Positions 30,751 through 45,733 of a stretch of 64,000 nucleotides of DNA are shown piece by piece. The DNA is from Escherichia phage PSa2: the sequence record OL770310. One strand, written 5' to 3'. The translations under genes were made by a program, and so were the position numbers. Numbering within the stretch: the first letter of the stretch is position 1; every line of letters starts with the position of its first letter. The notes under the pieces were generated by a model. That model was given only the letters and a program-made list of their open reading frames with translations, was not told the origin of the DNA and searched no databases.

Positions 30751-30758
30751 ATAATTTT

Positions 30759-30959: not shown

Positions 30960-30983
30960 ATTTTATTTCCTATTTAAGTTAAT

Positions 30984-31058: not shown

Positions 31059-31064
31059 AATATT

Positions 31065-31141
31065 TGGGGTGGCTAGTGGAATTCGAATCCACATAGGCCT
31101 GATTCACAATCAGGATCATTAACCAATTATGATATAGCCAC
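31065..31141 (-). tRNA. tRNA-His (GUG)
   Basis: hand-folded: anticodon arm CCUGA-UUGUGAA-UCAGG, discriminator C. Confidence 0.6.
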
Positions 31142-31502: not shown

Positions 31503-31706
31503 TTAAAACTTGTAACCTTCGGGAACCTTATCCTTAACACCAATATACTCAGCTTGGATGTAGTATGTTGGCACATGATCTTTAGGTAGATCTTTATTTA
31601 CATCATTAACTTCCATCAAGGCTTCGGCCTCGGTGTCAAATGGACGATACCAGATTTCACCACCCCAGCCACGTTCGCTTTCGGTATACTTAACAATGTG
31701 TTTCAT
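31503..31706 (-). CDS. hypothetical protein
   Basis: track ORF 31503-31757 trimmed to internal Met so it does not overlap the tRNA. Confidence 0.4.
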   Translation of the reverse strand: MKHIVKYTESERGWGGEIWYRPFDTEAEALMEVNDVNKDLPKDHVPTYYIQAEYIGVKDKVPEGYKF

Positions 31707-31724
31707 AAGGTTTTCCTTATTAGT

Positions 31725-31814
31725 TGGAGGAAGGTAATGGAGTCGAACCATCACCATATCGCTACAGCGGGCAGGTTTTCAAGACCTGTTACATACCACT
31801 ATGTCCTACCTTCC
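31725..31814 (-). tRNA. tRNA-Ser (UGA), long variable arm
   Basis: hand-folded: acceptor 7/7, loop CUUGAAA, ~90 nt. Confidence 0.55.
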
Positions 31815-31821
31815 AGTTGTT

Positions 31822-31914
31822 TGGCGGAAGAAGAGAGATTCGAACTCTCAAGCCTGCTTTCACAAGTCAGCCACTTTCCAAGCGGTTTTCGTCACCTAAT
31901 CGATTTGCTCTTCC
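31822..31914 (-). tRNA. type II tRNA, anticodon tentatively GGA (Ser)
   Basis: acceptor and T-arm (GAGAG-TTCGAAT-CTCTC) clear; anticodon arm assignment uncertain. Confidence 0.4.
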
Positions 31915-32088
31915 GTAGATCTTAGGATTAAATCATAAACCTCATTAGCGCATACTGGAAGTATGAGATTGTACATCTTTTGGTCGTACCTCTGACCATA
32001 TTCTATAAACACATACTCTTTAGTTAATGTATTAATAGCCAACCAGATATCAGTTACAGGAGTTTTCATCGTGATTTAATCCAATGTT

Positions 32089-32169
32089 TGGTAGGGATGG
32101 AGGGACTCGAACCCACACCCGAAGACTAGAACCTAAATCTAGCGCGTCTGCCAATTTCGCCACATCCCC
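32089..32169 (-). tRNA. tRNA-Leu (UAG)
   Basis: hand-folded: anticodon arm CUAGA-UUUAGGU-UCUAG. Confidence 0.45.
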
Positions 32170-32176
32170 ATTTTAT

Positions 32177-32395
32177 TTAGTTAGAAATAAATAATAATCC
32201 CGCAACAATGGAACCTACGCCACTGAATACCATTATCAGCATAGCTTCTAAGCTGATAAAGCGGACAGTATATGGAGCGCCCCAAGAATAATCAGTAAAG
32301 AAAGTTTTCTTTTCTTTAGCTAAATCTTTAACAATTCTAAAATAGATAGCTAGTGCTAAAGCTGCAAGAACTACAGAGGCTGCTAAGAATACCAT
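32177..32395 (-). CDS. small membrane protein
   Basis: 72-aa ORF, two hydrophobic segments. Confidence 0.4.
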   Translation of the reverse strand: MVFLAASVVLAALALAIYFRIVKDLAKEKKTFFTDYSWGAPYTVRFISLEAMLIMVFSGVGSIVAGLLFISN

Positions 32396-32415
32396 ATTAT
32401 TTCCTTAATTTGTTT

Positions 32416-32490
32416 GGTGGAGTCACTCAGAATTGAACTGAGTTCCACTGCTTGCAAGGCAGTAAGTTTAACCAAATAACCTATGACCCC
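32416..32490 (-). tRNA. tRNA-Ala (UGC)
   Basis: hand-folded: G3-U70 pair present, loop CUUGCAA. Confidence 0.55.
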
Positions 32491-32496
32491 GAATTT

Positions 32497-32570
32497 TGGT
32501 GGAGAAAGAGGGAGTTGAACCCTCGTCTTCTGCGTGCAAAGCAGATGTTCTACCATTAAACTATATCCCC
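32497..32570 (-). tRNA. tRNA, anticodon UGC by simplest fold (Ala-like, second copy)
   Basis: hand-folded: anticodon arm UCUGC-UUUGCAC-GCAGA, G3-U70; one acceptor mismatch. Confidence 0.45.
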
Positions 32571-32925
32571 AAAATCTTTAAGTTTACTAAGGCTATTAGC
32601 TCGGTGTGCGTACTGCCCTCAGACATTAGCCAGTAGAGAACAGCCGCTCTTCACAAACCCGATACACTATTCAGTTGCCGCTGAATCTAGTGGACTAATC
32701 TAGAACTTATTGCAAAGTATCCCCCGCCATTAGGGGTCTAATTGCAACTGTGCTTGTTGGCAGCCAGTCCTAGGTCGAGCTAATACCTTAGTGAACTAAA
32801 TTGATGGATATCAGACTAATTTTGCTACGGCGTTTATCCTGAGGATCTCTTTTTCGGTAGCTCTGCTAGTGTAGACGTCATACACCTGATATCTAGGCAG
32901 CTATTTTCACATCAATTTATATAAA

Positions 32926-32955
32926 TATTATAACAAGAAATTAAGCATCAAGCAA
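32926..32955 (-). promoter_or_regulatory. sigma70 early promoter
   Basis: promoter family motif. Confidence 0.5.
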
Positions 32956-33307
32956 GTACATTTTTAGCAATTTCTTGTAGTTCCTTAACGTCACTAACGA
33001 AAAGGTAGTCAGAGCTTCCAGAGTGCATACTCTGCATAACCACACCACCATCCGGTGCATCTTCTTTCAAGGTAAGTCCTAACCAGAACTCGGCAAAACT
33101 AGGTGTTACCTCACCTTGACTTGCCTTGAACACATCGCCTTCTGTGATCTCTTGACCAGTGGAGAGTCCCATGTATGGTACGTTCAGATCAATATCTTTG
33201 TAGAACTCAGCTAGATCTTGCTCGAAATCCCAACCTTTAGAGATAGCGAACTCCATTGTTACATGACCGAAATAGCCTTGAACCTTGCTTGATAATTGCA
33301 TTTGCAA
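32948..33307 (-). CDS. hypothetical protein
   Basis: 119-aa ORF. Confidence 0.5.
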   Translation of the reverse strand: MQMQLSSKVQGYFGHVTMEFAISKGWDFEQDLAEFYKDIDLNVPYMGLSTGQEITEGDVFKASQGEVTPSFAEFWLGLTLKEDAPDGGVVMQSMHSGSSDYLFVSDVKELQEIAKNVLA

Positions 33308-33326
33308 TTCCTTATTTTGAGTTAAT

Positions 33327-33400
33327 TGGTACTCGGTGATAGAATCGAACTATCGCAACCGCCGTGTAAAGACGGGGTTCTCCCATTAAACTAACCGAGC
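33327..33400 (-). tRNA. tRNA-Val (UAC)
   Basis: hand-folded: T-arm GATAG-TTCGATT-CTATC, loop UUUACAC. Confidence 0.55.
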
Positions 33401-33404
33401 AATT

Positions 33405-33482
33405 TGGTGGATTGCCTGGGATTCGAACCCAGAACTGACGGATTAAAGGTCCGCTACTCTTATCCAGTTGAGCTAGCAATCC
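33405..33482 (-). tRNA. tRNA-Lys (UUU)
   Basis: hand-folded: acceptor 7/7, loop CCUUUAA (C at position 33). Confidence 0.5.
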
Positions 33483-33868
33483 AATTTTTCTACTAATAAT
33501 TTAAAAGCATCTAGTACAGGTACTTCAAACCATTCTCCAGATACTCTATAATCTTTAAGAAGATTATGTAATTCTTTCTCTGTACGTCTTTTATCCGACG
33601 AAAATCTGAAATGGTATAGCTTGTAGTCTCTATTAGGTGAATAAGTTTGATAACTTGTTAACCTCTCATTCACATCTATAGTCATACCTATTTTATACAT
33701 GCCTGGCCATGCTGGATTACCAATTACATATACAAAACCTTCCGTTATAGGTATTTTATGCTCCCTTTTATACTTTAAGAGATTTAAGGCTGCCATTCGA
33801 TAACAGAATCTAAACTCTGAAGTTTTTAACTTACCTTCTTTACCTGAAATTTCGTTATATTTGCTCAT
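33473..33868 (-). CDS. T5orf172 / GIY-YIG-like domain protein
   Basis: 131-aa ORF; GFVYVIGNPAWPGMYKIGMT ... GEWFE pattern. Confidence 0.55.
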   Translation of the reverse strand: MSKYNEISGKEGKLKTSEFRFCYRMAALNLLKYKREHKIPITEGFVYVIGNPAWPGMYKIGMTIDVNERLTSYQTYSPNRDYKLYHFRFSSDKRRTEKELHNLLKDYRVSGEWFEVPVLDAFKLLVEKLDC

Positions 33869-34122
33869 ATAAGCTCTTATGAGCTTATCATCTATAATGA
33901 AGTTATCAGGAAGGTTTAAGGCAGCTAAAAACTTTATTAATTAGCATAGACTTCTTTAATAGAGTAAACTTTTAAGTAAGGATGATTAATACCAAATTCC
34001 GCCATCACTTCATTTTCATCTTTACCGTAATAGGCTAATGGATACTTCTTACGATCTTTACTAGAACGTAAATCACTTACTTTTAAACGAAATAATTTCA
34101 TTTCGAAATCCTTCTATTAAAT

Positions 34123-34200
34123 TGGAAGCGGGTGCAGGAATCGAACCTACCTCTTTCTAGCTTATGAGACTAGAGATCTCTACCAGAGATCTAACCCGCA
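34123..34200 (-). tRNA. tRNA-Met (CAU)
   Basis: hand-folded: D-arm GATC/GATC, loop CUCAUAA; one acceptor mismatch. Confidence 0.5.
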
Positions 34201-34206
34201 ATTGTT

Positions 34207-34284
34207 TGGTCTCCGTGGGAGGATTTGAACCCACGACCCTATCGCCCCAAACGAAACGCTCTGGCCAAACTGAGCTACACGGAG
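34207..34284 (-). tRNA. tRNA-Pro (UGG)
   Basis: hand-folded: acceptor 7/7, loop UUUGGGG. Confidence 0.55.
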
Positions 34285-34317
34285 AATATTCTTTGTTAAC
34301 TCACTTTATAAAATATA

Positions 34318-34346
34318 TTATACAGAGAATTAAGCTAAATAGCAAC
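34318..34346 (-). promoter_or_regulatory. sigma70 early promoter
   Basis: promoter family motif. Confidence 0.5.
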
Positions 34347-34593
34347 TACATTTTTTAATAAATTTACTTATTAGGTAAGTCACCGAGCTATCAACTCATG
34401 CTAGCGAGAAAGTTTGCGAGACCTTCTTTAAGTACTAGAACACACCCGCCGATGTGTCGGACTTACTTAATAAGTAAACTTTCGTTTACTTACACCTACC
34501 TGGTCGGGAGGATTTTCAGCGACTAGAACCGGCCGGAAACTCATCGCCTTGTTTATCTAGGAGTCCGTTCTCTAGGAAGCAGAAACCTAAATT

Positions 34594-34667
34594 TGGTGCG
34601 GTCGGAGGGAATCGAACCCTCAACTTTTGGTTGGCAACCAAAAATTATACCTTTTAACTACGAACGC
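34594..34667 (-). tRNA. tRNA-Gly (GCC)
   Basis: hand-folded: anticodon arm UUUGG-UUGCCAA-CCAAA. Confidence 0.55.
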
Positions 34668-34669
34668 AT

Positions 34670-34880
34670 AATAAGTCAATCTAGGCAGGACTTGAACCTG
34701 CTATCACTTGTGCGGATTTACGAGAACCATTCTTTCACTCGAATCGAACGAGCTTCTACCCTCGGCAAGCTGGTGTCCCCTCTCCACCACGCTAGAATGA
34801 TAATTAATGCCTGCTCCTTTGAATCAAGAAGTCCACCCCGGACTTTGGGTCTTTGCAGTACATCACGCTGCTCTGATGTT
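34670..34880 (-). other. tRNA-like segment: two canonical T-arm motifs but no pairing acceptor stems found
   Basis: minus-strand GCAGG-TTCAAGT-CCTGC and GCTCG-TTCGATT-CGAGT without matching 5' acceptor strands. Confidence 0.3.
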
Positions 34881-34956
34881 TGGTACACCCACTAGGACTT
34901 GAACCTAGAACCCTCCGCTTAAGAGGCGGTAGCTCTAACCATTGAGCTATGGATGT
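34881..34956 (-). tRNA. tRNA, anticodon CUU by simplest fold (Lys-like)
   Basis: hand-folded: T-arm CTAGG-TTCAAGT-CCTAG, loop CUCUUAA. Confidence 0.45.
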
Positions 34957-35032
34957 ATTATTATGTTTTGCAGTGCTCTAAATATAGACACTTCCCACGC
35001 GGTGGTTATCTATACCAGCGTCCTGCAAAAAT

Positions 35033-35109
35033 TGGCGCGACCGATGGGATTCGAACCCACATTTTCTCCCGTGACAGGGGAGTACCATTACCAAGCCAGC
35101 CCCGATCGC
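35033..35109 (-). tRNA. tRNA-Asp (GUC)
   Basis: hand-folded: anticodon arm CUCCC-CUGUCAC-GGGAG. Confidence 0.6.
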
Positions 35110-35118
35110 ATAATTTAT

Positions 35119-35304
35119 TTACTCAGTTTTGAGTTTTTCGATAGCTTCCTCAACCTCTTTTAGAGCTTCACGACGGGCATTCTGTTGCTGCATATCTTGA
35201 ATTAATGTCAGTTTTTGGTTTTCAATTTCTTGATCCCAAACCTTAATATTATTAATCAGACTATCACGATCAGCTTCTAGTCGAGCAATTGCACGAGTTG
35301 TCAT
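35119..35304 (-). CDS. small coiled-coil protein
   Basis: 61-aa ORF. Confidence 0.4.
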   Translation of the reverse strand: MTTRAIARLEADRDSLINNIKVWDQEIENQKLTLIQDMQQQNARREALKEVEEAIEKLKTE

Positions 35305-35405
35305 ATCTATTTCCTCAGTTATTAATGAAAATGGTATCTGTGACTGAATTCAATATCAGTAATGATAGCTGGTTGGCTACCGGTTTACTTAACTCTACAC
35401 AGAAT

Positions 35406-35488
35406 ATGGCGGGCCGTGTAGGATTCGAACCTACGTTGTCTTTCGACATGGATTAACAGTCCACCGCCAAACCGCTTGGCTAACGACC
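35406..35488 (-). tRNA. tRNA with anticodon GUU (Asn) and an unusual 13-nt variable arm
   Basis: hand-folded: anticodon arm GUGGA-CUGUUAA-UCCAU; variable hairpin GTCGAAAGAC. Confidence 0.4.
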
Positions 35489-35495
35489 CTAAAAT

Positions 35496-35571
35496 TTGGA
35501 CGACCGCATGAGATTCGAACTCACATAAGGAGGTTTTGCAGGCCTCCGCCTAAGCCATTCAGCCAACGGTC
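35496..35571 (-). tRNA. tRNA, anticodon tentatively GCA (Cys), enlarged anticodon loop
   Basis: acceptor and T-arm clear; anticodon stem GGAGG/CCTCC encloses a 9-nt loop. Confidence 0.35.
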
Positions 35572-35750
35572 GAGTTATCTTGCTTTTCGAGATTAGTAAA
35601 CTCTAGATCTTTAGAATGTCCTATAGATCTAGCATAATAGCCATCTCCAGCATCATAGCCTGATTTACCACACTTACACATCTTAAACTCGCGTAAACGT
35701 GTAAATATATGTTCAGAACCACAACACTTAAATTTAACTAGCTTTTTCAT
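35559..35750 (-). CDS. Cys-rich small protein
   Basis: 63-aa ORF; 3' end overlaps tRNA, true extent uncertain. Confidence 0.35.
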   Translation of the reverse strand: MKKLVKFKCCGSEHIFTRLREFKMCKCGKSGYDAGDGYYARSIGHSKDLEFTNLEKQDNSTVG

Positions 35751-35989
35751 CCAACACGCTCCGGCAGGTCTTCCAGTTTATATTCAGTAGCCACATTAGC
35801 AGCATCTAGTAACAAACCCATATGTTTAAGAATTCTAGTGATAGCCTCGCCTTCTGCTTCTTCTACAAAGCAGCGTAGTTGCATGAAGTCAATACCACCA
35901 TCCATACCAGAGAAAATGTTAAGTAAGCGAAGCATTACCAGCTTACGTTCTTTCAATTCTTGTTCTGTCATGTTGCTTCTCCAGTTCAA
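35747..35989 (-). CDS. hypothetical protein
   Basis: 80-aa ORF. Confidence 0.45.
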   Translation of the reverse strand: MNWRSNMTEQELKERKLVMLRLLNIFSGMDGGIDFMQLRCFVEEAEGEAITRILKHMGLLLDAANVATEYKLEDLPERVG

Positions 35990-36000
35990 TTTATGAAATA

Positions 36001-36030
36001 ATTATACAGAACTTTAAGCGGTTAAGCAAC
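36001..36030 (-). promoter_or_regulatory. sigma70 early promoter
   Basis: promoter family motif. Confidence 0.55.
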
Positions 36031-36309
36031 TACATTTTTCAGAAATATGATGCCTTTCTTTTTCTTCTTATACTTCCACGTTAACGGGTTCTGTCTATTA
36101 TGAACGCTTGAGATCTTTGTCTCGTCAAAGTTCTTCAATACCATGTAATCACAGGCCAACTGTTCTAGTGGAATGTGATCTCCGTCAAAAGCGTAAACGT
36201 AAGGCTGTTGACTGGCACGATAATGATAGACTTTGTTAATTCTGCGTTTCAGTGACTTATCCGCACAGTAAATAAAGAAGTTTTCAGGATGCATCAGCAT
36301 CTCCTTCAA
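36022..36309 (-). CDS. hypothetical protein
   Basis: 95-aa ORF. Confidence 0.45.
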   Translation of the reverse strand: MKEMLMHPENFFIYCADKSLKRRINKVYHYRASQQPYVYAFDGDHIPLEQLACDYMVLKNFDETKISSVHNRQNPLTWKYKKKKKGIIFLKNVVA

Positions 36310-36311
36310 AT

Positions 36312-36386
36312 TGGTGCACCCTGTTCGAATTGAACGAACCTCTCAAGCTCTTCAGGCAAGCGCTAATCCATCTCAGCTAAAGGTGC
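36312..36386 (-). tRNA. tRNA-Phe (GAA)
   Basis: hand-folded: T-arm GTTCG-TTCAATT-CGAAC, loop CUGAAGA; weak anticodon stem. Confidence 0.45.
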
Positions 36387-36392
36387 AAATAT

Positions 36393-36470
36393 TGGCAAAC
36401 CTACTAGGACTCGAACCTAGACCGTACGGTTTTGGAGACCGACATGCTGTCCAGTAACACTCTAGGAATG
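36393..36470 (-). tRNA. tRNA-Trp (CCA) candidate
   Basis: anticodon arm UCGGU-CUCCAAA-ACCGU resembles bacterial tRNA-Trp; acceptor pairing poor, 5' end uncertain. Confidence 0.35.
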
Positions 36471-36477
36471 CAGAAAT

Positions 36478-36554
36478 TGGCGTCCTGTGCGGGGATCGAA
36501 CCCGCAAATCCTACCTTGAAAGGGTAGTGACTTTACCAGTTTGTCTAACAGGAC
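36478..36554 (-). tRNA. tRNA-Glu (UUC)
   Basis: hand-folded: acceptor 7/7, T-arm GCGGG-TTCGATC-CCCGC, loop CUUUCAA. Confidence 0.6.
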
Positions 36555-36561
36555 TTAAATT

Positions 36562-36652
36562 TGGTGTTGGATGATGGAGTCGAACCACCCGAGACCCTTC
36601 CGAGTCGGCAGATTTACAGTCTGCTTCGCTACCTCTACGATACTAATCCAAC
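36562..36652 (-). tRNA. tRNA-Tyr (GUA), long variable arm
   Basis: hand-folded: acceptor 7/7, anticodon arm GCAGA-CUGUAAA-UCUGC. Confidence 0.6.
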
Positions 36653-36777
36653 ATATTTGAATGAAAAGTAAGTCGGTTAAACTCAAGGTGGAATATTTCA
36701 GGATTTCCTGACTTTACCCATAAAAGTAACTCGCTTAGTTACTTCTCATTCAGATATGTTTTCCAAATTAGATAACT

Positions 36778-36807
36778 ATTATATCAAGTTTTGAAGGACT
36801 GAGCAAG
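36778..36807 (-). promoter_or_regulatory. sigma70 early promoter
   Basis: promoter family motif, degenerate. Confidence 0.4.
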
Positions 36808-36842
36808 TCAAATTTTAAAGAACTTGCTCAGTGCTACATCAG

Positions 36843-37118
36843 TTACTCGAAGCTAGGAGTGACACTCAGTTTGAATGGAAGCTCGAACACTTCTTCATAA
36901 TCATCATTGAGCGTAATTACACGACCTTCTAGCTTAGTCATGGTGATTTCGATATCAGCCCTTGCATCAGGAGCCATACCAGCTTCCACACATTTAGCTT
37001 TAACTTCCGGCAGAAGTTCTACATCGTAGAAATAAAGCCATTCAATCTCACCTTCCCAGCCACCCCAGGATTTACAAACAGCACTTTCAACACCAGTTGC
37101 AGTAACACGTTTTGACAT
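36843..37118 (-). CDS. hypothetical acidic protein
   Basis: 91-aa ORF. Confidence 0.5.
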   Translation of the reverse strand: MSKRVTATGVESAVCKSWGGWEGEIEWLYFYDVELLPEVKAKCVEAGMAPDARADIEITMTKLEGRVITLNDDYEEVFELPFKLSVTPSFE

Positions 37119-37148
37119 TCGTTAACTCCTTCATCAATTTATATAACT

Positions 37149-37179
37149 ATTATAACAGAAATCTTAAGTAAAAAGCAAG
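37149..37179 (-). promoter_or_regulatory. sigma70 early promoter
   Basis: promoter family motif. Confidence 0.5.
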
Positions 37180-37208
37180 TACATTTTTAAAATTTCTGCT
37201 TGGAGGAG

Positions 37209-37460
37209 TTAAACTCCTGATTCTTCAGCCAGATCAAGCCCAACCAACGTGATTGCCATAATAGCCGCGCCATGTTCTTTCTCTCCTAGCTCTTTGGCTT
37301 GAGTGAGAATATTAAGGAATTGCTTTTGAAAATCTGCAACTTCTTCTGTCATGCCTGCTTCAGCAATGATTCCTTTCAGCATAAAGCGTTGTGCCGTAAT
37401 TTCAGAATTAGCCATTTGTTTTCTCCAGTTGTTTAGAATGTAAGCCAAACTTAGGATCAT
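37209..37460 (-). CDS. hypothetical protein
   Basis: 83-aa ORF. Confidence 0.45.
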   Translation of the reverse strand: MILSLAYILNNWRKQMANSEITAQRFMLKGIIAEAGMTEEVADFQKQFLNILTQAKELGEKEHGAAIMAITLVGLDLAEESGV

Positions 37461-37566
37461 AGCGATCGTAAGTAGTACCGTTAGTTGAAGCCTTGATGCT
37501 ATGAAAACGACAGTACATAAATTTACGTAGTGCTTTCTTAATAGCTTTCATTTTATTTCCTTAATT

Positions 37567-37643
37567 TGGTAGGGGTGGTGGGATTCGAACCCACAAAACC
37601 TGAATTTTAAGTCCAGTACCTATGCCAATTCGATTACACCCCC
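37567..37643 (-). tRNA. class I tRNA with anticodon UAA by simplest fold (Leu-decoding)
   Basis: hand-folded: T-arm GTGGG-TTCGAAT-CCCAC, anticodon arm CUGGA-CUUAAAA-UUCAG, short variable loop. Confidence 0.4.
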
Positions 37644-37651
37644 ATGTAATC

Positions 37652-38005
37652 TTAGCGAATCTCTAAACCCTGGAAATATCGAGGGAATGGAGAGCCAACT
37701 TCAAAATTGATGCCCCAATTAAGTTCAACGAGTTCAGATTTATTAAGATCTAGGCCATTACCTTCAAAGATATAGCCGTAAACCGCAGGGAACATAGCTG
37801 CTAGATCTTCCATATCGGAATGAGCATTGTGTTCTTCACGGAACTGCTCAAACTCTTCAAAGAACTTTTCTAGGAAGAACTCAGGTACGATGAACGTTAC
37901 CACATCAGTAGAATCATCGGTACGATACACCGTAGCTTGGAACAAGCCAACACCTAAAAGGTTTATTGCCGGAGTAGTAAAAATATCCATCTTAGCCTCG
38001 CTCAA
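37652..38005 (-). CDS. hypothetical protein
   Basis: 117-aa ORF. Confidence 0.5.
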   Translation of the reverse strand: MSEAKMDIFTTPAINLLGVGLFQATVYRTDDSTDVVTFIVPEFFLEKFFEEFEQFREEHNAHSDMEDLAAMFPAVYGYIFEGNGLDLNKSELVELNWGINFEVGSPFPRYFQGLEIR

Positions 38006-38177
38006 TGTCTAGACAAATTGCATATTCAGGGTTGATACCAGTACCTTTACATGTAGGACATTCCCATTCTCTACAGAAAATATCCCCAGGTTCTGCATCA
38101 TCCTGCCTACCACCACCATGACAATCCTTACACCGACATTCTTCTAAGGCTTTCTTCATTTCATAGAATCTAGACAT
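37992..38177 (-). CDS. zinc-finger-like small protein
   Basis: 61-aa ORF; CRCKDCHG ... CPTCKGTG. Confidence 0.4.
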   Translation of the reverse strand: MSRFYEMKKALEECRCKDCHGGGRQDDAEPGDIFCREWECPTCKGTGINPEYAICLDIERG

Positions 38178-38194
38178 ATAGTCTCCTAGTTAAT

Positions 38195-38272
38195 TGGTGG
38201 CTCCCGGAGGATTCGAACCTACCTACCTTTCGCTTATGAGGCGACGGCTCATACCAAATGAGCTTGAGAACC
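38195..38272 (-). tRNA. tRNA, anticodon CAU (Met / fMet / Ile2 type)
   Basis: hand-folded: D-arm GCTC/GAGC, loop CUCAUAA. Confidence 0.5.
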
Positions 38273-38277
38273 AAATT

Positions 38278-38371
38278 TGGAGGAAGATGCCAGATTCGAA
38301 CTGGCACACCGTGTCTCCACAGCTACTGGCTGTTTAGCAAACAGCTCCCTTACCTTTAGGGTTAATCTTCC
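38278..38371 (-). tRNA. tRNA-Ser (GCU), long variable arm
   Basis: hand-folded: acceptor 7/7, anticodon arm GCUGU-UUGCUAA-ACAGC. Confidence 0.5.
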
Positions 38372-38386
38372 GAATTTATGAATATA

Positions 38387-38414
38387 TTATACAGAAAATT
38401 TCGGCATTAAGCAA
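38387..38414 (-). promoter_or_regulatory. sigma70 early promoter
   Basis: promoter family motif. Confidence 0.55.
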
Positions 38415-38422
38415 GTGAAATT

Positions 38423-38719
38423 TTACTGAACACTGCACTGATACACTTGTTTGATACGTGTCACTGACTTCTTAGTTGGATTGATAGAAGAACCTTGCCA
38501 CCAACGTGATTCTGAGCTGAGAACAGCACCAGGAACAGCTTGTTCTTTTGGCAGAACAATATCAAAACATTGCTCACCCATATTATCTTTAATGTGTGAC
38601 CAAATATCCAAAGTAAATCGTTCTAACTTATTACAAACCTGAACTTGACAAAGTTCCTGTTGCGGAGCAGCAAATACAGAAGTAGATACTAGAGTCAATG
38701 CAAGTACAGTGCGTTTCAT
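38423..38719 (-). CDS. secreted small protein (signal peptide)
   Basis: 98-aa ORF. Confidence 0.45.
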   Translation of the reverse strand: MKRTVLALTLVSTSVFAAPQQELCQVQVCNKLERFTLDIWSHIKDNMGEQCFDIVLPKEQAVPGAVLSSESRWWQGSSINPTKKSVTRIKQVYQCSVQ

Positions 38720-38749
38720 GTTTGATTCCTCTCTCGAATTTATAAATAT

Positions 38750-38778
38750 ATTATACAGAAATTTTCTATATTAAGCAA
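38750..38778 (-). promoter_or_regulatory. sigma70 early promoter
   Basis: promoter family motif. Confidence 0.55.
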
Positions 38779-38795
38779 GTGAAAATTTCTGTATA

Positions 38796-38818
38796 ATAGC
38801 CCTCTAAGCGAGGGCTAT
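38796..38818 (-). terminator. hairpin ATAGCCCTC-TAAGC-GAGGGCTAT downstream of pnuC-like gene
   Basis: 9-bp inverted repeat. Confidence 0.45.
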
Positions 38819-38825
38819 AACTACT

Positions 38826-39518
38826 TTATTTGTTAACGCGTACAAAGTATCCTTTATAAGCTCCAAGAATAGAGTTGCCTAAGAATACTAGCCACATTGC
38901 TAGGATTGCGTAAGATGCACCTGTAGATTGAGCAGTTACAAGCCAAATATATACAGTACCAATATTAATAGCAATCCAGATCAGCCACTGCTCGGCGTAC
39001 TGCTTAACCATAAGCCACATAGCGATCACACTACCTACCGCAGTAAATGCATCCAACATTGGGAATGGATCAGCCGTAGTAGCTAAGAAACTACCATACC
39101 CTAACGTGGCTACTGCTAGAATCCCTAGAGTTAGCAAAGCTTGGGCTTTAGTCAGAATCTTAGTTGGAACATCCGGCAGATTACTTGGCTTATTTTTATG
39201 CCATAAGTACATTCCATAAAACTGCATAGGAACGTAGTATAGCAGGTTTAGTGCAGCGTTACCATAAAGATCTGCGTTTAAAGCTGTAATACCATATGTA
39301 AGAACACCCACTAAGCCCCAAATATAGTTGGAAACACGTCCTTTTGCAACCAGAATAACACAAACCACATTGGTTATTGCAGTAGCCCAATCTAGAGCTG
39401 TACCATTATAGTTTGCTAAACTAATAAAGGCGACTGCTATAAACAGCCACAGATATTCCAGAGGTTTCCAGTTTTTAAAGTCATTTACGAGATAGTTAGT
39501 CATATTAAAACTCTCCAA
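38826..39518 (-). CDS. pnuC: nicotinamide riboside transporter PnuC-like
   Basis: 230-aa polytopic membrane ORF with PnuC-like pattern. Confidence 0.65.
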   Translation of the reverse strand: MESFNMTNYLVNDFKNWKPLEYLWLFIAVAFISLANYNGTALDWATAITNVVCVILVAKGRVSNYIWGLVGVLTYGITALNADLYGNAALNLLYYVPMQFYGMYLWHKNKPSNLPDVPTKILTKAQALLTLGILAVATLGYGSFLATTADPFPMLDAFTAVGSVIAMWLMVKQYAEQWLIWIAINIGTVYIWLVTAQSTGASYAILAMWLVFLGNSILGAYKGYFVRVNK

Positions 39519-40578
39519 CGTTAAAGTGATGAATCAGCCAGTCTACTGCGTTTACTGCTTCGTCCATACGAACTTTGTAGTCCGGAGAGTCGATGTAAAC
39601 AGTACGCCCTTCAGGGAACTGATTTGGAAATTCTTTCTTCATCTGCTCGAACAGTTCAGAAGTAATTGAACGATCGGAGTTAATACGTAAACCATCATCT
39701 ACCCACTTGACAGTAGGCGCTAGAACAATTACTAAATCGTAATGTTCTTCTTTTGCAATTGCTGTAACCACAGGGTTCTTACTATGTTCATAAAGTCTGT
39801 GGTAGAACTCAGTAATAAAAGCATTTGTATCCACAAACATGATCTTATTTGCAGTACGTTCTGCTTCAAACTCTAGCTCTTTGTGTCTGAACGCAATTTT
39901 ACTATAGTCTTCGCTGGTAAGCAGATTTTCGTTACCAACTAGATCAACTTCACAATACGTTCGGCCATATTCTTCTACCCACGAAGTGTTGTATAGCTTC
40001 GCAAGGTATTTTGTTAAAGTAGTCTTTCCTGAGCTTTCAGTCCCAATGATTACAACCTTACGCACGTAATCTTTACGAACTACGCTAGGAAGAAACTCCC
40101 AATACTTCATAAGATCATTACGAATCATTGTAGCTGAGACTGGAACACGAGTCCGATCAGAATCTACAATATAATGACCAAACTTCGGCAGATATTTCTT
40201 ATATTCTGCATCATAGTCTAGTTCGCTAGAGAAAATGGTGATCTCAGGCAAATGTCCGTAATTTTCATTAAGGATTCTAGCATATTCCGGCCAACCATTC
40301 GGATATTCAGGAATATCATCTTCAATAATGTACTCTACCGAAATGTGCTCAATATCCGCGTAAGTTTGTTCTAACCAACGAAGTCGATTCTTTAACTGTA
40401 ATACTTCCTGATCACGTGTGTTCTGCTTATCCAGCCAACGATTATCATGACTAACTACAATAATAACTCGTTCACACATAGTTGCTGCTGTGTTTATTAG
40501 GTTAATATGACCACGCGTTAATGGCGCGAACTTACCAATTACTAGACCAGTCTTAATCATATTTGATTCCTCTCTCAA
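39505..40578 (-). CDS. nadR: NadR-like bifunctional NMN adenylyltransferase / ribosylnicotinamide kinase
   Basis: 357-aa ORF; N-terminal GKFAPLTRGH motif, C-terminal Walker A GTESSGKTT. Confidence 0.65.
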   Translation of the reverse strand: MREESNMIKTGLVIGKFAPLTRGHINLINTAATMCERVIIVVSHDNRWLDKQNTRDQEVLQLKNRLRWLEQTYADIEHISVEYIIEDDIPEYPNGWPEYARILNENYGHLPEITIFSSELDYDAEYKKYLPKFGHYIVDSDRTRVPVSATMIRNDLMKYWEFLPSVVRKDYVRKVVIIGTESSGKTTLTKYLAKLYNTSWVEEYGRTYCEVDLVGNENLLTSEDYSKIAFRHKELEFEAERTANKIMFVDTNAFITEFYHRLYEHSKNPVVTAIAKEEHYDLVIVLAPTVKWVDDGLRINSDRSITSELFEQMKKEFPNQFPEGRTVYIDSPDYKVRMDEAVNAVDWLIHHFNVGEF

Positions 40579-40590
40579 ATTTATAAATAT

Positions 40591-40619
40591 ATTATACAGA
40601 TAATTTAGCGTTCAAGCAA
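40591..40619 (-). promoter_or_regulatory. sigma70 early promoter
   Basis: promoter family motif. Confidence 0.55.
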
Positions 40620-40776
40620 TCGAATTTTTAAACTTTTTAGTGGAAAAATCTCAAGGCATTTAGTGGTAGCACGTTGTTGCTACAATAATAGTATATGATT
40701 CTAAAGAATTAAAGAATTAAATACTAAAGACCTTAGTTGAATAACTTATGGGCTTTTCTTTTGCCTTAAATACAGA

Positions 40777-40808
40777 AAAGCCCGCGCTCTCGGAGGAAAC
40801 GCGGGCTT
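40777..40808 (-). terminator. hairpin AAAGCCCGCG-N13-CGCGGGCTT
   Basis: GC-rich inverted repeat downstream of SPFH gene. Confidence 0.5.
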
Positions 40809-40831
40809 GGTTCGAAGATTACGTGTAACTA

Positions 40832-41776
40832 TTACTTGTTACGCATATCCATGATCATTTGACCATCGTAGCCAGTACCAACAACAGTCTGCGGTACACC
40901 ACCTTGGTATTTTTCAGCACGAAGCATTTCAACTTCCAGCTGCTTCCAACGAATCATTTCAGGAGTAATGGTACGTTGCAGAGCGGCGTTAGCTTCAGCC
41001 TCTTTCTTAGCTGCGTACAGTTTAGCATCTGCGTCACGTTCGTTAGCTACTGCCATGTTTTCACGAGCGGAACGATCTGCCTCAGCTTGCTTAACTTTCT
41101 GCTGTGCTTCTTGTTCAACACGAGCCAGTTCAGCTTTTGCAGCGTTAACTTGTTCTTCACGAACTTTGGTGTTCTGTACCTGTTCCATGATTACCGGTGG
41201 CAGAGTAATATCCTGAAGGAATACTTGCTTAACGGTGTAACCATAAGGACGCGCATACTCTTCTACTTCTTGCTGAATAGCGGTTTGCAGTTGAGCCTGA
41301 ATCTTAGCGTCGAACAGATCTTGTGCTTTTGGTACAGACTTACCAAACTCACGAATCGTAGATAGCATCTTCTCTTCAACGTACTTGTTCAGAGCTTGAT
41401 CCTGAGTACCTGCGTTAACACGGTTCATAGGAGCTTTAGCTCCATCAAACTGCAACATAACGGTAATGTCAACAGTAGACTTAAACTTATCCTGGCTAGG
41501 AACCTGAAGTTTATCCAGTTTCATAGAAATATCTTTCGTACTAAAAGTATCAAAAGAAGCAAATGGGTTAACAATATGGAAGCCTGGCAATACAGGATTA
41601 GGGCTAACTTTACCCAGGAAAGTTTGGGTCTTAACAGTACCATCCTGAACAACTGTATAGGAATTGAGAGCCAGAATAAGAGCACCAAGACCAACAGCAG
41701 CACCAACACCCCAACGTTTAATAGTACGAATTACTTTTTGCTCAGAAGTCAGTTCTTTAGTGTTTTTAGTAAACAT
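40832..41776 (-). CDS. SPFH/band-7 (prohibitin/HflC-like) domain membrane protein
   Basis: 314-aa ORF; N-terminal TM, SPFH-like core, Ala/Glu/Gln-rich coiled coil. Confidence 0.55.
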   Translation of the reverse strand: MFTKNTKELTSEQKVIRTIKRWGVGAAVGLGALILALNSYTVVQDGTVKTQTFLGKVSPNPVLPGFHIVNPFASFDTFSTKDISMKLDKLQVPSQDKFKSTVDITVMLQFDGAKAPMNRVNAGTQDQALNKYVEEKMLSTIREFGKSVPKAQDLFDAKIQAQLQTAIQQEVEEYARPYGYTVKQVFLQDITLPPVIMEQVQNTKVREEQVNAAKAELARVEQEAQQKVKQAEADRSARENMAVANERDADAKLYAAKKEAEANAALQRTITPEMIRWKQLEVEMLRAEKYQGGVPQTVVGTGYDGQMIMDMRNK

Positions 41777-41787
41777 ATATTTCCTTA

Positions 41788-41988
41788 TTATTTAGAAGAG
41801 TTAGCTACTACAGTTACTTTAGTTGCAGAAATAAACAGGCTAGCATCCACAGCAAATTCAGGAGCTTTGATATCTCCATTATGAAATATGACTATACCGG
41901 AGACTACTTCAAATGCTAGTGCTGTAACATCGGTGGTATTTACTTGTGAATGTTCACCTACTACTTTTACTATATATCGTGTTTTCAC
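41788..41988 (-). CDS. hypothetical protein
   Basis: 66-aa ORF. Confidence 0.4.
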   Translation of the reverse strand: MKTRYIVKVVGEHSQVNTTDVTALAFEVVSGIVIFHNGDIKAPEFAVDASLFISATKVTVVANSSK

Positions 41989-42014
41989 TTTATTTTCCTA
42001 GCAGTTAATAAAAT

Positions 42015-42089
42015 TGGCCGAGGTGACAGGATTCGAACCTGCATAAAGGAATTTAGAAGACTCCTGCCTATCCCTTAGACTACACCCCG
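42015..42089 (-). tRNA. tRNA-Arg (UCU)
   Basis: hand-folded: D-arm GUCU/AGGC, anticodon arm GGAGU-CUUCUAA-AUUCC. Confidence 0.55.
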
Positions 42090-42099: not shown

Positions 42100-42900
42100 T
42101 TTAAGAACTCTCGTAAAAGTCCTTAAAGATACCCGACGGTAGGTAGGGTCAGCCCCCTCAGATTAAGCTCTGCAGCCCTTCCGTCAGACAATATCTTCCA
42201 GTTTAAGTCAAGGTGACTTTGTGGTTATGTTCTCCGTATGTGAAGAACTCGGTTAGGCTTAGGTCATGACTCCCAGCCTACTGCTGCCGCTCAACAGGAA
42301 TTATCGCGAATTACCTGTACTATTGGGCACCATTAGTGACATCTCTCATGTCAGCGTTTCCCACTCTCATATTCACGCGGTCTGTTAGAATCGCACCTCC
42401 GATTTTCGATGCGAAGCTGGATGCCTAGTCTCAGGTTAAACGGGGTACACACTAGGCAGTGATCCCGAGTTCCGAGTTTGGTTGAGGCCGTCAGGTTTCC
42501 TCGTGGTTTAGCTGTTTCGATTCTAACCTAATACTGATCAGGCGGCGTACCTCCTGAACCGTCATAGTATGTACTCCAGCAGCGAATGCTTATCCGGTAT
42601 AAGCCCGAGTTATCCGATTCTTTCCAGAAGGAGCAGTGAAGCTCAATGTCAGCCTGTGAGCATCTGGCAGTGTTATCACATAAGTCAGTTCGACACCCCA
42701 CTAACATAAACTAGAGAAGAGTTTACGAGATTTCGGGACAGCTCCCGAGTTTTCCACAGATTTTCAGTTCCCTATCAATAGCAATAAGCGTTAGCTCGTA
42801 GCCTCTCTCAGAGTACTTACTAGTCTCCAACTCACCGACTCTATTCAGTGGAATAGCTATCCTACTAGGAATCACTAAACTCACTCAGCGTAATCGGCTC
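42100..42900 (-). other. ORF-free, GC-richer 0.8-kb transcribed leader (candidate structured RNA)
   Basis: no ORF of 60 aa or more on either strand; between promoter at 42914-42942 and tRNA-Arg. Confidence 0.35.
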
Positions 42901-42913
42901 GCTGTTCTCTAAT

Positions 42914-42942
42914 TTATGAATCTATTATACAGAATTTTAAAG
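42914..42942 (-). promoter_or_regulatory. sigma70 early promoter
   Basis: promoter family motif. Confidence 0.55.
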
Positions 42943-42960
42943 CATTTAGCAAATCAATTT

Positions 42961-43404
42961 TTAATTAAATTCGCCAGCAACCTGAGCAGCAATGCCACCG
43001 TCGTAACGACCAGGAAACTCTTCCTTAATCGCTTTCATCAGCATACCCTTTGTAATCCCAGGATTCAGCTTAACTAATTCTGCGAAGTATTTGCGAATCT
43101 CAGAATCAGATAGCTGAGGAGGCAAATACTGCTGTAACCATTTGTTCAGTATATATTCATACTGAGCAGACTGCAAGCTATAATTATCAAGGTCTTGACC
43201 GTGAAGTTTAGCTTTTGTCTGATTAATGCTTTTCAGTTGAGCTTTTAGATAAGATACAAACTGTTCAGAAGTAATGAAGTCTTTATCAACACGCTGAAGA
43301 TCTCCGATTATGGTTTGGTAGCTTTTAGCTACTTCTTTATCAGAACCATCAACCTTAGATTCCTGCAAAGCCCTACGCAAAACATCTAGAATATTCTCTT
43401 CCAT
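42961..43404 (-). CDS. GatB/YqeY-domain-like protein
   Basis: 147-aa ORF; C-terminal pattern resembles YqeY family. Confidence 0.45.
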   Translation of the reverse strand: MEENILDVLRRALQESKVDGSDKEVAKSYQTIIGDLQRVDKDFITSEQFVSYLKAQLKSINQTKAKLHGQDLDNYSLQSAQYEYILNKWLQQYLPPQLSDSEIRKYFAELVKLNPGITKGMLMKAIKEEFPGRYDGGIAAQVAGEFN

Positions 43405-43642: not shown

Positions 43643-44110
43643 TTAAGTTTTCTTAACCACAGGCTTGTAGAACGTATGGCCTTGAATCTTCGTTGTTTTC
43701 TTAAACTTCTTTGTCCAGTACGGTTTATCTTTACCACTATGGAAGTATAACGCTCCATGTGTTGGATCTTGTGGTAAATCAACGTAGTATATCACTCTAG
43801 CTAAATTCTTAGCAACTTGCCAAGCCTCATCGGTTTTATCAACTTTTGGTCTCTTGGCCACCCAAGAGAACTGGTTAGACTGATATACTACTTTACAGTA
43901 AGAATCAGGAAAAGTACCAGAGTTAACACGGTTTTTAGTAACCTGTGCAACTGCGATCATTCCTTTAGTGCCCTCACCTCGTGCTTCGAAGTAGATATTT
44001 TTTGCAATGCAATCAATCTGCTTTGAGTCGTAGGTCGCATGACTATTGAAGCTATAGGTTAGGGCAGCTATTAAAAGCAAAGCTGCCTTCATTTTATTTA
44101 CTCCGGCCAA
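43643..44110 (-). CDS. secreted cell-wall hydrolase, SleB/Hydrolase_2-like
   Basis: 155-aa ORF; signal peptide; NIYFEARGEG and VAQVTKNR motifs. Confidence 0.5.
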   Translation of the reverse strand: MAGVNKMKAALLLIAALTYSFNSHATYDSKQIDCIAKNIYFEARGEGTKGMIAVAQVTKNRVNSGTFPDSYCKVVYQSNQFSWVAKRPKVDKTDEAWQVAKNLARVIYYVDLPQDPTHGALYFHSGKDKPYWTKKFKKTTKIQGHTFYKPVVKKT

Positions 44111-44415
44111 TCGTACTCAATACGATTAGGGCTTTCTTGATACCCTTCGTCTAAGAGATCATTACGCATGGTCTCTTTAGCTACTGGGTTCGAGGTTACT
44201 AGTACCACTTTCTTGGGTCTCTGACCAAATTCTAGGAGTAAACGAAGAATTTGATAACCTTCCATACCCTCTACAGCCAGATCGTTATCCATATAAACGA
44301 AATGACCTGTGGTATCGGTTTTATTCAGAAACTCAACAGCGGCTTCGGGGGTTCTAATGATAATGTCCATTCCATGAAGGTTACGCACATCATCAATCAG
44401 AATATGAAAAATCAT
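44098..44415 (-). CDS. hypothetical protein
   Basis: 105-aa ORF. Confidence 0.45.
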   Translation of the reverse strand: MIFHILIDDVRNLHGMDIIIRTPEAAVEFLNKTDTTGHFVYMDNDLAVEGMEGYQILRLLLEFGQRPKKVVLVTSNPVAKETMRNDLLDEGYQESPNRIEYDWPE

Positions 44416-44445
44416 AATAGCCTCGTCTCATCAATTTAAAAATAT

Positions 44446-44473
44446 ATTATACAGAAAACTAAACTAATTAGCA
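44446..44473 (-). promoter_or_regulatory. sigma70 early promoter
   Basis: promoter family motif. Confidence 0.55.
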
Positions 44474-44858
44474 AATACATTTTTAAATTGAGAGACTAGT
44501 AAACCGATAAACAGCCTAGAGGCGCCACAGGCCATATCTTATGAGCCATGTACCTTTGATCTAGGGTTTGAATCATCAACGAATACTTTGCATCTTTTAG
44601 CTTTAGAAGGTTAGAAGTTTGAGTGCTTTTAACTTTTCAGCTTTCATACTTGAGCGTTGATCTTTGAAGTTGTGTTGGTACTACCAACGACCTTTTGTTT
44701 TTACGTGTCAGATTAAATGTCTGATGTAATAAACATAATCTCCAATAGATTATACTTTATAGTATGGTCAGCGGTCTTATTTAACCTCGTATTTCAACCG
44801 CTGCTGCGAGGTAAGATGCTTGGGCTTTCGTCTACCGATTTACTAGTCTTTTAAATTA

Positions 44859-45497
44859 TTACTCTACTTCGATAAAAGTAGAGGCGTTGGACTCAGACAG
44901 AACAAAGTCAACGTTAGTTGCAAAGTCCTGGTATTCTTCGTCGTGTTGCTTGATCAGCTTTTCCAGCTCCAGCGGATCGATCAGGAACGGAGTGTTCTTG
45001 AGTTCCAGCAGGTTAAGCTGCATCTTAACTTCATCCTCGGAAGTCTTCTTGTCGCGGGTAGCCATGGTATCCTGCAAACGCTCATACTTGGCATCAAACT
45101 GAGCCTTCTGAGTGTTAAACTTAACAGTAGCAGCATGGAACTGCTTACGCATGTTAGCCAGCAACTGAGCCTTGAGTTCCATAGAACGCTTAGCTTCGAT
45201 TGCTTCCGCAACAGTCATAGAGCGAGAGCCGATCTCTACAACAGTTTCAGCATTGCTCTTGATCAGCGCAGCTTTCAGACGATCACGCTGGGACATCATA
45301 TCCAGCAGAGACTGGAAATCAGTCTTAATACGAGTAGACAGAGCATCTACTTCGATTGCAGCGCCAACTACAACTTGGTTCTTGTCCTTACCTTCACCAA
45401 CAGCAATCAAAAGCTGTTGTTCAGTAGCTTTACGGATTTTAGCTTCCAGAGACTTGATAGTTGCCAGAGCACGAGTTTTAGAGATACGAGTAGTCAT
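44859..45497 (-). CDS. coiled-coil protein
   Basis: 212-aa ORF, helical, Ala/Lys/Glu-rich. Confidence 0.5.
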   Translation of the reverse strand: MTTRISKTRALATIKSLEAKIRKATEQQLLIAVGEGKDKNQVVVGAAIEVDALSTRIKTDFQSLLDMMSQRDRLKAALIKSNAETVVEIGSRSMTVAEAIEAKRSMELKAQLLANMRKQFHAATVKFNTQKAQFDAKYERLQDTMATRDKKTSEDEVKMQLNLLELKNTPFLIDPLELEKLIKQHDEEYQDFATNVDFVLSESNASTFIEVE

Positions 45498-45550
45498 TAT
45501 TTGCTTCCTTATACGAAGTTTGAGATTTGAATTTGTTTTAAAATGGTCTA

Positions 45551-45733
45551 TTACAGACCGATTGCCAGCAGAGTGCGCAGAACAGTATCAGAACTGTTAT
45601 CAATATTCGTATTAGCGCGATTCAGCACGTTAAAGATTTTCTGGATGCCGGACTGACGCTCAGCCATACGACGCAGACCCAGGTTACGTTTTGCTACTTT
45701 ACCATTTTTACGGACGTTTTTAGATACTGGCAT
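45551..45733 (-). CDS. small basic protein
   Basis: 60-aa ORF. Confidence 0.35.
   Translation of the reverse strand: MPVSKNVRKNGKVAKRNLGLRRMAERQSGIQKIFNVLNRANTNIDNSSDTVLRTLLAIGL

Follow-up and report, generated by a model that had tools for sequence, protein, structure and literature searches.

A candidate structured RNA linked to a DIP1984-like protein gene in Escherichia phage PSa2, other phages and Bacillota

Introduction

In the T4 gene 32 operator, a pseudoknot precedes an A/U-rich sequence in which (U)UAAA-type motifs recur; a protein with a site size of about 7 nucleotides (nt) binds cooperatively along this sequence, using it as a lattice. Here we describe a 0.4-kb intergenic segment (positions 44474-44858) of a 64,000-nt stretch of DNA from Escherichia phage PSa2 (sequence record OL770310), referred to as the window, which on comparative grounds is very likely to encode a functional, structured RNA on the strand of the neighbouring genes. 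In the model that we consider most likely, the gene 32 operator would be its nearest mechanistic analogy, with the order of pseudoknot and repeated motifs in common. The T4 operator, however, lies 5' of the gene that it regulates and ends at the ribosome-binding site of that gene, whereas the RNA described here lies 3' of its linked gene, is closed by a long helix (P1), possesses an extra 3' domain and is linked to a protein that is not a single-strand-binding protein. The gp32 pseudoknot is mentioned in a passage of PMC10690425.

Other described systems resemble the locus in part. The transfer-messenger RNA (tmRNA)/SmpB system has in common with it a small protein gene followed by an RNA of about 350 nt with paired ends, and an H-type pseudoknot with a UAAAA-type loop 3 that precedes an A-rich segment; by eye, the pseudoknot stems S1 and S2 in the window (CCUCG.. 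and GCGGU..) are like PK1 of Escherichia coli tmRNA. A tmRNA was nevertheless ruled out. The element lacks a tRNA-like domain, a CCA end and a tag reading frame, the Rfam tmRNA models were negative, and ARAGORN, which found 29 tRNAs in the window, detected no tmRNA there and neither a tRNA nor a tmRNA in the segment. Moreover, the linked protein is all-helical, in contrast to the SmpB-type barrel. CsrB and RsmZ, with their GGA motifs, and the TRAP- and HutP-binding RNAs, with their (G/U)AG repeats, similarly present many regularly spaced short motifs in a stable RNA. The motif of the present RNA is AAAG with a 7-nt period, while GGA in CsrB lies in hairpin loops and the NAG repeats of TRAP and HutP targets have a 5-6-nt period. 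A CsrB-type sponge was rejected: AAAG forms the core of the repeat, any of the four bases can follow its G, and AAGG is only occasional.

Type III antitoxin RNAs (ToxI, CptI and antiQ) are pseudoknotted, form a cassette of a protein and a repeat RNA, and are distributed patchily among Bacillota, Proteobacteria and phages. Their repeats, however, are units of 34-45 nt located 5' of an endoribonuclease toxin gene, from which a terminator separates them. Here the period is 7 nt, the array lies downstream of the gene, and the protein, predicted to be DIP1984-like, has no PADLOC match; a type III antitoxin RNA was therefore discarded. ROOL and GOLLD also belong to the large structured RNAs and, according to passages of PMC5737381 and PMC12286853, frequently occur in phages or prophages and beside tRNA genes; they are much larger (about 580-800 nt), and those passages mention no fixed partner protein. 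No sequence or structure match to either was obtained. Rfam 15, applied in its two modes to the window, to 40 related loci and to three elements chosen as representatives, yielded no family above threshold in the element. The phage PAK_P3 encodes an RNA, sRNA2, with a T-loop-like 11-mer (PMC4933390), which was considered as a possible relative; no PAK_P-type phage was present among the 120 matches listed of about 740 phage matches to the linked protein. As far as the literature that we found goes, the pair of protein and RNA has not been described as a whole before, and searches on T5 transcriptomes and on DUF6847/DIP1984 returned nothing relevant.

Results and Discussion

The window derives from a T5-like phage (Demerecviridae) with Epseptimavirus as nearest relatives, and its local genes lie on the - strand. 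An earlier note, made from the letters of the window alone, had singled out the segment as an intergenic region free of open reading frames (ORFs) of 60 amino acids (aa) or more, downstream of the gene at 44859-45497 and upstream of a promoter, and this description is accurate. The segment separates the T5.085 homologue (44859-45497, - strand, 212 aa) from the promoter of the T5.084 homologue (44098-44415), no ORF of at least 60 aa occurs in any of the six frames, and the longest ORFs are one of 27 aa with a TTG start on the gene strand (44496-44579) and one of 45 aa on the + strand (44717-44854). The promoter is a sigma-70 match in 10 of 12 positions (TTGCTA-17-TATAAT, 44474-44446, - strand) at the place of the annotated early promoter in T5 records, and it serves the next transcription unit, outside the RNA. 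A search of the - strand from 44000 to 45700 for an intrinsic terminator, that is a G+C-rich stem with a U tract, found none, and thus an intrinsic terminator or simple 3' hairpin does not account for the segment.

The gap is conserved to a degree not expected of a spacer. A 701-nt query spanning it matched 454 phage records, while the 385-nt segment alone matched 440, of which 437 cover at least 80% of its length, with an identity of at least 92% among the matches listed and a single copy per genome. In a comparison of 27 T5-like genomes from IMG/VR, with the window as reference, identity in the gap was 94.5-100%, as against 88-90% in the upstream and 86-89% in the downstream coding sequence in most of the genomes. 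The supposed spacer has therefore evolved about half as fast as the adjoining genes, and on this comparison the gap is evidently under purifying selection. The earlier note would have given up its candidate RNA had the region not been conserved among relatives; it is conserved. Two blocks are nearly invariant among the T5-like phages (44858-44725 and about 44640-44500), and a hairpin between them (44724-44708) shows a compensatory change from A:U to C:G.

Structure of the RNA

The whole structured RNA, of about 355 nt, was placed at 44494-44848 (- strand) from the minimum free energy (MFE) fold and its z-score, the RNAalifold consensus with the homologous loci L031 and L032, and the match to a family hidden Markov model (HMM). 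The gene strand of the 385-nt segment folds at -100.1 kcal/mol, compared with -72.9 +/- 5.5 for 100 dinucleotide shuffles, none of which was as good (z = -4.97). The RNA is closed by P1, a 19-base-pair (bp) helix found in both the MFE fold and the consensus, in which the 5' strand GACUAGUAAAUCGGUAGAC (44830-44848, -) pairs with the 3' strand GUUUAUCGGUUUACUAGUC (44494-44512, -). Three of its pairs are G.U and would be A.C on the opposite strand. Equivalent helices of 7-22 bp and of unrelated sequence recur at the same place in about 27 of the 30 distinct helix sequences examined and together comprise 346 Watson-Crick, 34 G.U and 9 A.C pairs, G.U and A.C having been scored equally. This excess of G.U over A.C indicates that the constraint acts on the gene-strand RNA.

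Following the 5' strand of P1, a 17-nt linker (GAAAGCCCAAGCAUCUU, 44813-44829, -) leads to an H-type pseudoknot (44769-44812, -), which was located with a pseudoknot finder and starts 46 nt past the stop codon. It consists of a 6-bp S1 (ACCUCG 44812-44807 with CGAGGU 44789-44784), an 8-bp S2 (CAGCGGUU 44803-44796 with GACCGCUG 44776-44769) and an A-rich loop 3, UAAAUAA (44783-44777), all on the - strand. The earlier note had reported a long imperfect hairpin with the arms AGCGGT and ACCGCT; both arms are present (44802-44797 and 44775-44770) and extend to the full 8-bp stem. The hairpin is not free-standing, though, but is stem 2 of the pseudoknot, as its 19-nt loop holds the 3' strand of the other helix (CGAGGU). 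The same topology lies 40-80 nt past the stop codon in most homologous loci, with wholly different stem sequences between lineages, and in a search restricted to this topology a score of 14 or more was reached by 27 of the 37 real sequences and by 3 of the 111 shuffles. The last 7 nt of the linker (44813-44819) may tentatively be paired with AAGAUGC (44590-44596) in a further helix, P2, in that RNAalifold pairs columns 30-36 with 274-280; this helix is kept only partly in L031 and L032.

Between the pseudoknot and the repeats lies a variable region (44670-44768, -), which contains in the window the hairpins UCAGA-N7-UCUGA (44708-44724) and GUUGGUAGUACCAAC (44674-44688); other lineages have here either a T-arm-like hairpin or an entire tRNA. 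Locus L037, from a distant phage, has a complete tRNA-Thr gene (3229-3305) inside the RNA, between pseudoknot and repeat array, and at the corresponding place of loci L058, L047 and L061 (about 3225-3245) there is a T-arm-like hairpin, GCUGGUUCGAAUCCAGC. The variable region of the window also holds, on the - strand, the string TATAAT (44749-44754) and a 7-codon mini-ORF preceded by GGAG (GGAG-N4-ATG, 44713-44741), both invariant in T5-like phages. A -35 partner for this TATAAT was not found, and the mini-ORF peptide is not conserved.

The next module is an array of about 11 heptamer repeats with the consensus NUYAAAG (44580-44669, -), which shows a regular AAG spacing and is the block that nhmmer aligns across all lineages. 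Examples of its repeats are UUCAAAG, UGAAAG, UGAAAAG, UUAAAAG, UCUAAAG, CUAAAAG and UGCAAAG. Of the sequence preceding the 3' domain in the window, 137 nt were analysed and contain nine AAG motifs. Among 30 non-redundant homologues, the distance from one AAG triplet to the next has its maxima at 7 (50 cases), 14 (22 cases) and 21-22 nt. Across the family the array comprises about 10-14 heptamers.

The 3' domain (44512-44570, -) is made up of CAAAC, an outer stem, an inner GGU/GCC plus GGC-loop-GCC hairpin (44547-44530) and a final CUG. In the family its pattern is AAAUC-stem...stem-CUG, and it adjoins the 3' strand of P1. Its outer stem pairs CCUAGA (44565-44560) with UCUAGG (44520-44515), both on the - strand. 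No pair of this helix was broken in the first alignment of 26 sequences and four of its five pairs covary. The covariance model R1, built from that alignment, matched 63 of 80 independent loci, all on the + strand and at the expected place; its sole match in the window (44510-44575, -, 44.4 bits, E = 4.7e-9) concerns a sequence that belongs to the training set. On the alignment of R1 matches, pairing in the outer helix amounts to 98.8% and double-change cells number 80; its covariation score is 0.605 compared with 0.151, a value that none of 500 shuffles equalled, and the signal collapses after a slide of one column. The inner hairpin is probable. Compensatory sets (GGC:GCC, GAC:GUC and UGG:CCA) occur in the T5-like subfamily, and GGU:ACC and GGA:UCC were read by eye; a naive stem finder did no better on it than on shuffles, with competing pairings outside the T5-like subfamily, and MAFFT could not align the inner part of the domain.

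As the RNA starts 10 nt past the stop codon of the upstream gene, it is physically embedded in the 3' untranslated region (UTR). Of the suggestions in the earlier note, a small RNA, a processing site or a long 3' UTR, the comparative evidence upholds a functional gene-strand RNA within a 3' UTR; the RNA is neither small nor a single hairpin.

Distribution and linkage to the upstream gene

With the upstream protein as query, 27 close and 52 distant loci were recovered from IMG/VR, the latter with 29-42% protein identity. In most of the distant viral loci the gene is followed by an ORF-free gap of 300-950 nt and often then by tRNA genes. A profile of the T5-like gap run with nhmmer matched 9 of these distant loci at first and 44 of the 52 after iteration, and the final family HMM, built iteratively from viral loci, recognised 27 of 27 T5-like, 48 of 52 distant viral and 70 of 80 bacterial loci. 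All 147 pooled matches lie on the strand of the protein gene and 52-502 nt past its end, and none lies elsewhere. In the window the HMM gives a single match (44681-44497, - strand, E = 5e-36). By reading of the sequences, the order of the modules is identical everywhere. Among named phages, the RNA is present in unannotated gaps of Pseudomonas phiPsa374 (E = 1e-20), Bacillus BC01 (1.6e-10), Lactococcus AM12 (2e-4) and, as judged from a covariance-model match, Salmonella SE131. Besides the T5-like phages, its carriers include many other large phages rich in tRNA genes, with Gram-negative or Gram-positive hosts.

In a scan of prokaryotes with one genome per species, the protein was found in at least 80 loci, from Lysinibacillus, Solibacillus, Paenibacillus, Brevibacillus, Clostridia and a few metagenome-assembled genomes (MAGs) of other lineages, and in 73 of 80 bacterial loci the RNA lies downstream of the protein gene. 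In the Lysinibacillus locus L107 a gene for a 378-aa membrane protein, which we read as a putative transporter, lies upstream and the RNA ends at an intrinsic terminator; the setting does not look like that of a prophage. Intrinsic terminators directly after P1 are found in bacterial and in several viral loci. In all-against-all clustering of flanking ORFs, neither the viral nor the bacterial loci showed another gene conserved beside the pair.

Some loci carry insertions or duplications. In the Salmonella phage bastian (locus L002, 1989-2565), and also in 8sent65 and PMBT22, there is an insert of about 540 bp with an HNH homing-endonuclease gene. It follows directly on the 3' strand of P1 (...ACUAGU in bastian; ...GGUUUACUAGU), between the RNA and the downstream promoter, and such an insertion just outside P1 fits P1 as a functional boundary. 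The 3'-domain model matches twice in the Parabacteroides MAG locus L125 (2330-2398 and 2692-2756, about 360 nt apart), which suggests a tandem duplication of the RNA. Skipping-rope RNA (RF02924), an orphan motif, was noticed at L080 (2142-2229) just upstream of the partner gene and at L090 (2519-2647) just downstream of the RNA.

The partner protein

The T5.085 homologue is a member of phrog_1491 (E = 1.4e-81), and the RNA, starting at 44848, lies directly downstream of it on the same strand. The confident AlphaFold2 model of this protein (mean predicted local distance difference test score, pLDDT, 90.4) shows long helices packed as a bundle, together with small strands, a predicted DIP1984-like fold for which PF20935 (DIP1984/DUF6847) and the structure 3kdq are the points of comparison. 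No match to Pfam, NCBIfam or PADLOC was obtained. The family amounts to 3311 clusters at 50% identity, almost all of 205-217 aa. Invariant residues include R9, R71, K75, K103 and the motifs VAEAI and LSExNA. In many of the phage records listed the phrog_1491 gene is labelled 'tail fiber protein'. The position in the early cluster, the predicted DIP1984-like helical fold and bacterial loci that are not prophage-like make this label doubtful, and it looks like a propagated annotation error.

Comparison of the loci thus establishes that a structural constraint acts at the level of RNA, that the RNA is strictly linked to one protein family and shares its orientation, and that it is located at the 3' end of the transcription unit of the protein gene. 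Going further, we consider it probable that the non-coding RNA of about 355 nt is the 3' part of the mRNA of the 212-aa gene and forms with that protein a two-component ribonucleoprotein (RNP) cassette; that the RNA acts together with the upstream protein at all is likewise favoured, by a modest margin, from the sequence comparisons.

Relation to RAGATH motifs

The nearest matches in Rfam are RAGATH-27 (RF03100) and RAGATH-17 (RF03095), motifs reportedly first described by Weinberg in 2015. To our knowledge neither has a known function, and no paper mentioning them turned up in the literature searched. The RAGATH-27 model aligns over its full length to the 5' domain of L107 (P1 5' strand, GAAAAC..AAAC linker and S2 with UAAAA in its loop), and RAGATH-17 aligns more weakly to the same domain, in both cases below the gathering threshold (25.6 against 76.1 bits and 16.9 against 102.3 bits, respectively). 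The 5' half of the RAGATH-27 consensus aligns at the same place in L097, L073, L050 and others, and exceeds every coding-region control in 20 of 135 loci. In the window no match to either motif was found even at E up to 10. The two motifs, of about 86-96 nt, cover at most the 5' quarter of the RNA and include neither the closing helix, the array, the 3' domain nor the protein partner. We read the two motifs as probable fragments of sibling subfamilies; the window does not qualify for membership in them.

Alternative explanations

The most serious competitor of an RNP cassette is a purely cis-acting 3'-UTR element without any function in trans, which could block 3' exonucleases, offer an RNase III site, insulate the early units from one another or mediate autoregulation of the protein. 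The RNA begins 0-50 nt past the stop codon, leaving no room for a promoter, is ended by a terminator in bacteria and sits in the window between the gene and the next promoter, where the 19-bp P1 would make a plausible RNase III substrate. For mere protection of a 3' end, however, a terminator hairpin would suffice, and four distinct modules, pseudoknot and 7-nt array among them, have been kept from phages of Gram-negative bacteria to Bacillota; the tRNA genes inside or directly after the RNA suggest a context of stable-RNA processing. We regard this explanation as unlikely, yet not negligible. Somewhat less probable still is a decoy or sponge independent of the protein, whose array would titrate a host factor or an A-rich-site defence ribonuclease (such as a ToxN/AbiQ-like type III toxin), with the upstream gene no more than linked. 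Multivalent short repeats in a stable frame do resemble sponge RNAs, a patchy distribution in bacteria together with virulent phages is typical of conflict systems, and the T5-like neighbourhood includes RNA-repair-type genes, namely those of a cREC protein (PF20274) and an Rv2179c-like exoribonuclease. Against it stand the near-obligate linkage to one protein family, which argues for a co-encoded partner, the absence of a GGA (CsrA) motif and the lack of a PADLOC match for the protein. Also, the hosts in which the RNA occurs, among them E. coli, Pseudomonas, Bacillus and Lactococcus, are so diverse that a host-specific partner is unlikely.

Two further readings were rejected as highly improbable. 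The segment might act as DNA, as an iteron origin, as a T5 nick site (GGCGCC at about 44524-44529) or as a miniature inverted-repeat transposable element (MITE) with AATTTAAAA target duplications: the 19-bp strands of P1 amount to terminal inverted repeats with AATTTAAAA on both sides, short direct repeats adjoin a gene of unknown function, and the 3' domain has a GCGC core, GCGC being associated with T5 nicks. The compensatory changes in the helices and the 34 G.U against 9 A.C pairs nevertheless reveal a strand-specific constraint on RNA, the pseudoknot topology is conserved, the terminators and tRNA genes that come after the RNA share its orientation, the 7-nt period is out of step with the DNA helical phase, and GGCGCC and the AATTTAAAA flanks are absent from L031, L032 and other lineages, the element being single-copy in each genome. 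Equally improbable is that one or more small proteins are encoded, by the 7-codon Shine-Dalgarno-ATG ORF (44713-44736), the 27-aa ORF or the 45-aa ORF of the + strand. While GGAG does stand 4 nt before the ATG of the mini-ORF and the + strand ORF is annotated in one GenBank record (PMBT27), all three substitutions in the mini-ORF among relatives are non-synonymous, two of them forming the compensatory A:U to C:G pair of the hairpin, and none of the three ORFs exists in L031, L032 or remoter homologues, where the RNA features are present.

Several observations also weigh against the RNP cassette that we favour. The linkage of gene and RNA could equally be explained by a purely cis-acting 3' UTR, and the predicted DIP1984/DUF6847 fold has no recognised RNA-binding motif or known activity. 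In partition-function folding the array was hardly more open than the rest of the RNA (unpaired probability 0.42 as against 0.39 elsewhere, higher in 16 of 28 sequences). The T5-like phages lack a terminator after the element, the invariant TATAAT and GGAG-ATG strings are not explained by this model, and the literature searched held no report of a T5 non-coding RNA at this place. As the HMM was built on viral loci, only the bacterial loci and the covariance-model matches count as independent tests.

A model of the RNP cassette

We provisionally propose, with the RNP as a scaffold, a new family of large structured RNA which together with the gene of a DIP1984-like protein makes up a two-gene cassette. 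A nuclease-resistant frame would be provided by P1, the pseudoknot and the 3' domain, and within it the 7-nt-periodic AAAG array would present a multivalent lattice. On this lattice the partner protein, or another single-strand-binding factor with a footprint of about 7 nt, might assemble cooperatively. In T5-like phages cleavage of the 19-bp P1 by RNase III may free the RNA from the early transcript ahead of the next promoter. The location amid phage tRNA genes and genes of RNA-repair type suggests that the particle has a role in RNA metabolism or translation. In a bolder version, which we advance tentatively and rate as slightly short of probable, the locus would represent a hitherto unrecognised, ancient and widespread two-gene RNP cassette with an RNA of 300-400 nt, common to Bacillota chromosomes and many tRNA-rich virulent phages, T5 included. 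Its protein would polymerise on the AAAG lattice into a particle whose novel function would lie in RNA metabolism, in translation or in conflict between phage and host, and RAGATH-27 and RAGATH-17 would be fragments of this RNA class.

T5 is a classical model phage, and the equivalent stretch is without an annotated feature in NC_005859 (43142-43504), in AY587007 and in most of the relatives' records listed. Should the model hold, a protein family of 3311 clusters without a Pfam or NCBIfam model would gain a defined RNA partner, and a new class of large structured RNA would become accessible in tractable systems, such as T5 or EPS7 on E. coli or Salmonella, Lysinibacillus and Bacillus, the repeat lattice lending itself directly to binding and cryo-EM studies. 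The precise insertion of a homing endonuclease at the edge of the element in some relatives would likewise be accounted for, and two orphan Rfam motifs would gain a context.

Genomic neighbourhood

The T5.084 homologue downstream of the RNA (44098-44415, -) encodes a protein with the cREC 'cyclic-phosphate processing receiver' domain (PF20274), and upstream of the partner gene lies that of an Rv2179c-like 3'-5' exoribonuclease (PF16473; 45804-46505, -), the two being neighbours of RNA-repair type. Further downstream are the gene of a band-7 protein and a cluster of 29 tRNA genes (29209-42089). Copies of AATTTAAAA lie just outside both ends of the element (44840-44858 and 44481-44493, -) and are absent in other lineages; they probably reflect chance in AT-rich DNA. 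Another ORF-poor stretch (about 42100-42960, -) separates tRNA-Arg (42015-42089) from the gene at 42961-43404. It corresponds to positions 40848-41566 of T5 NC_005859, annotated as 'rnaX, stable RNA with unknown functions', for which AY587007 gives a pseudo-tRNA and a repeat.

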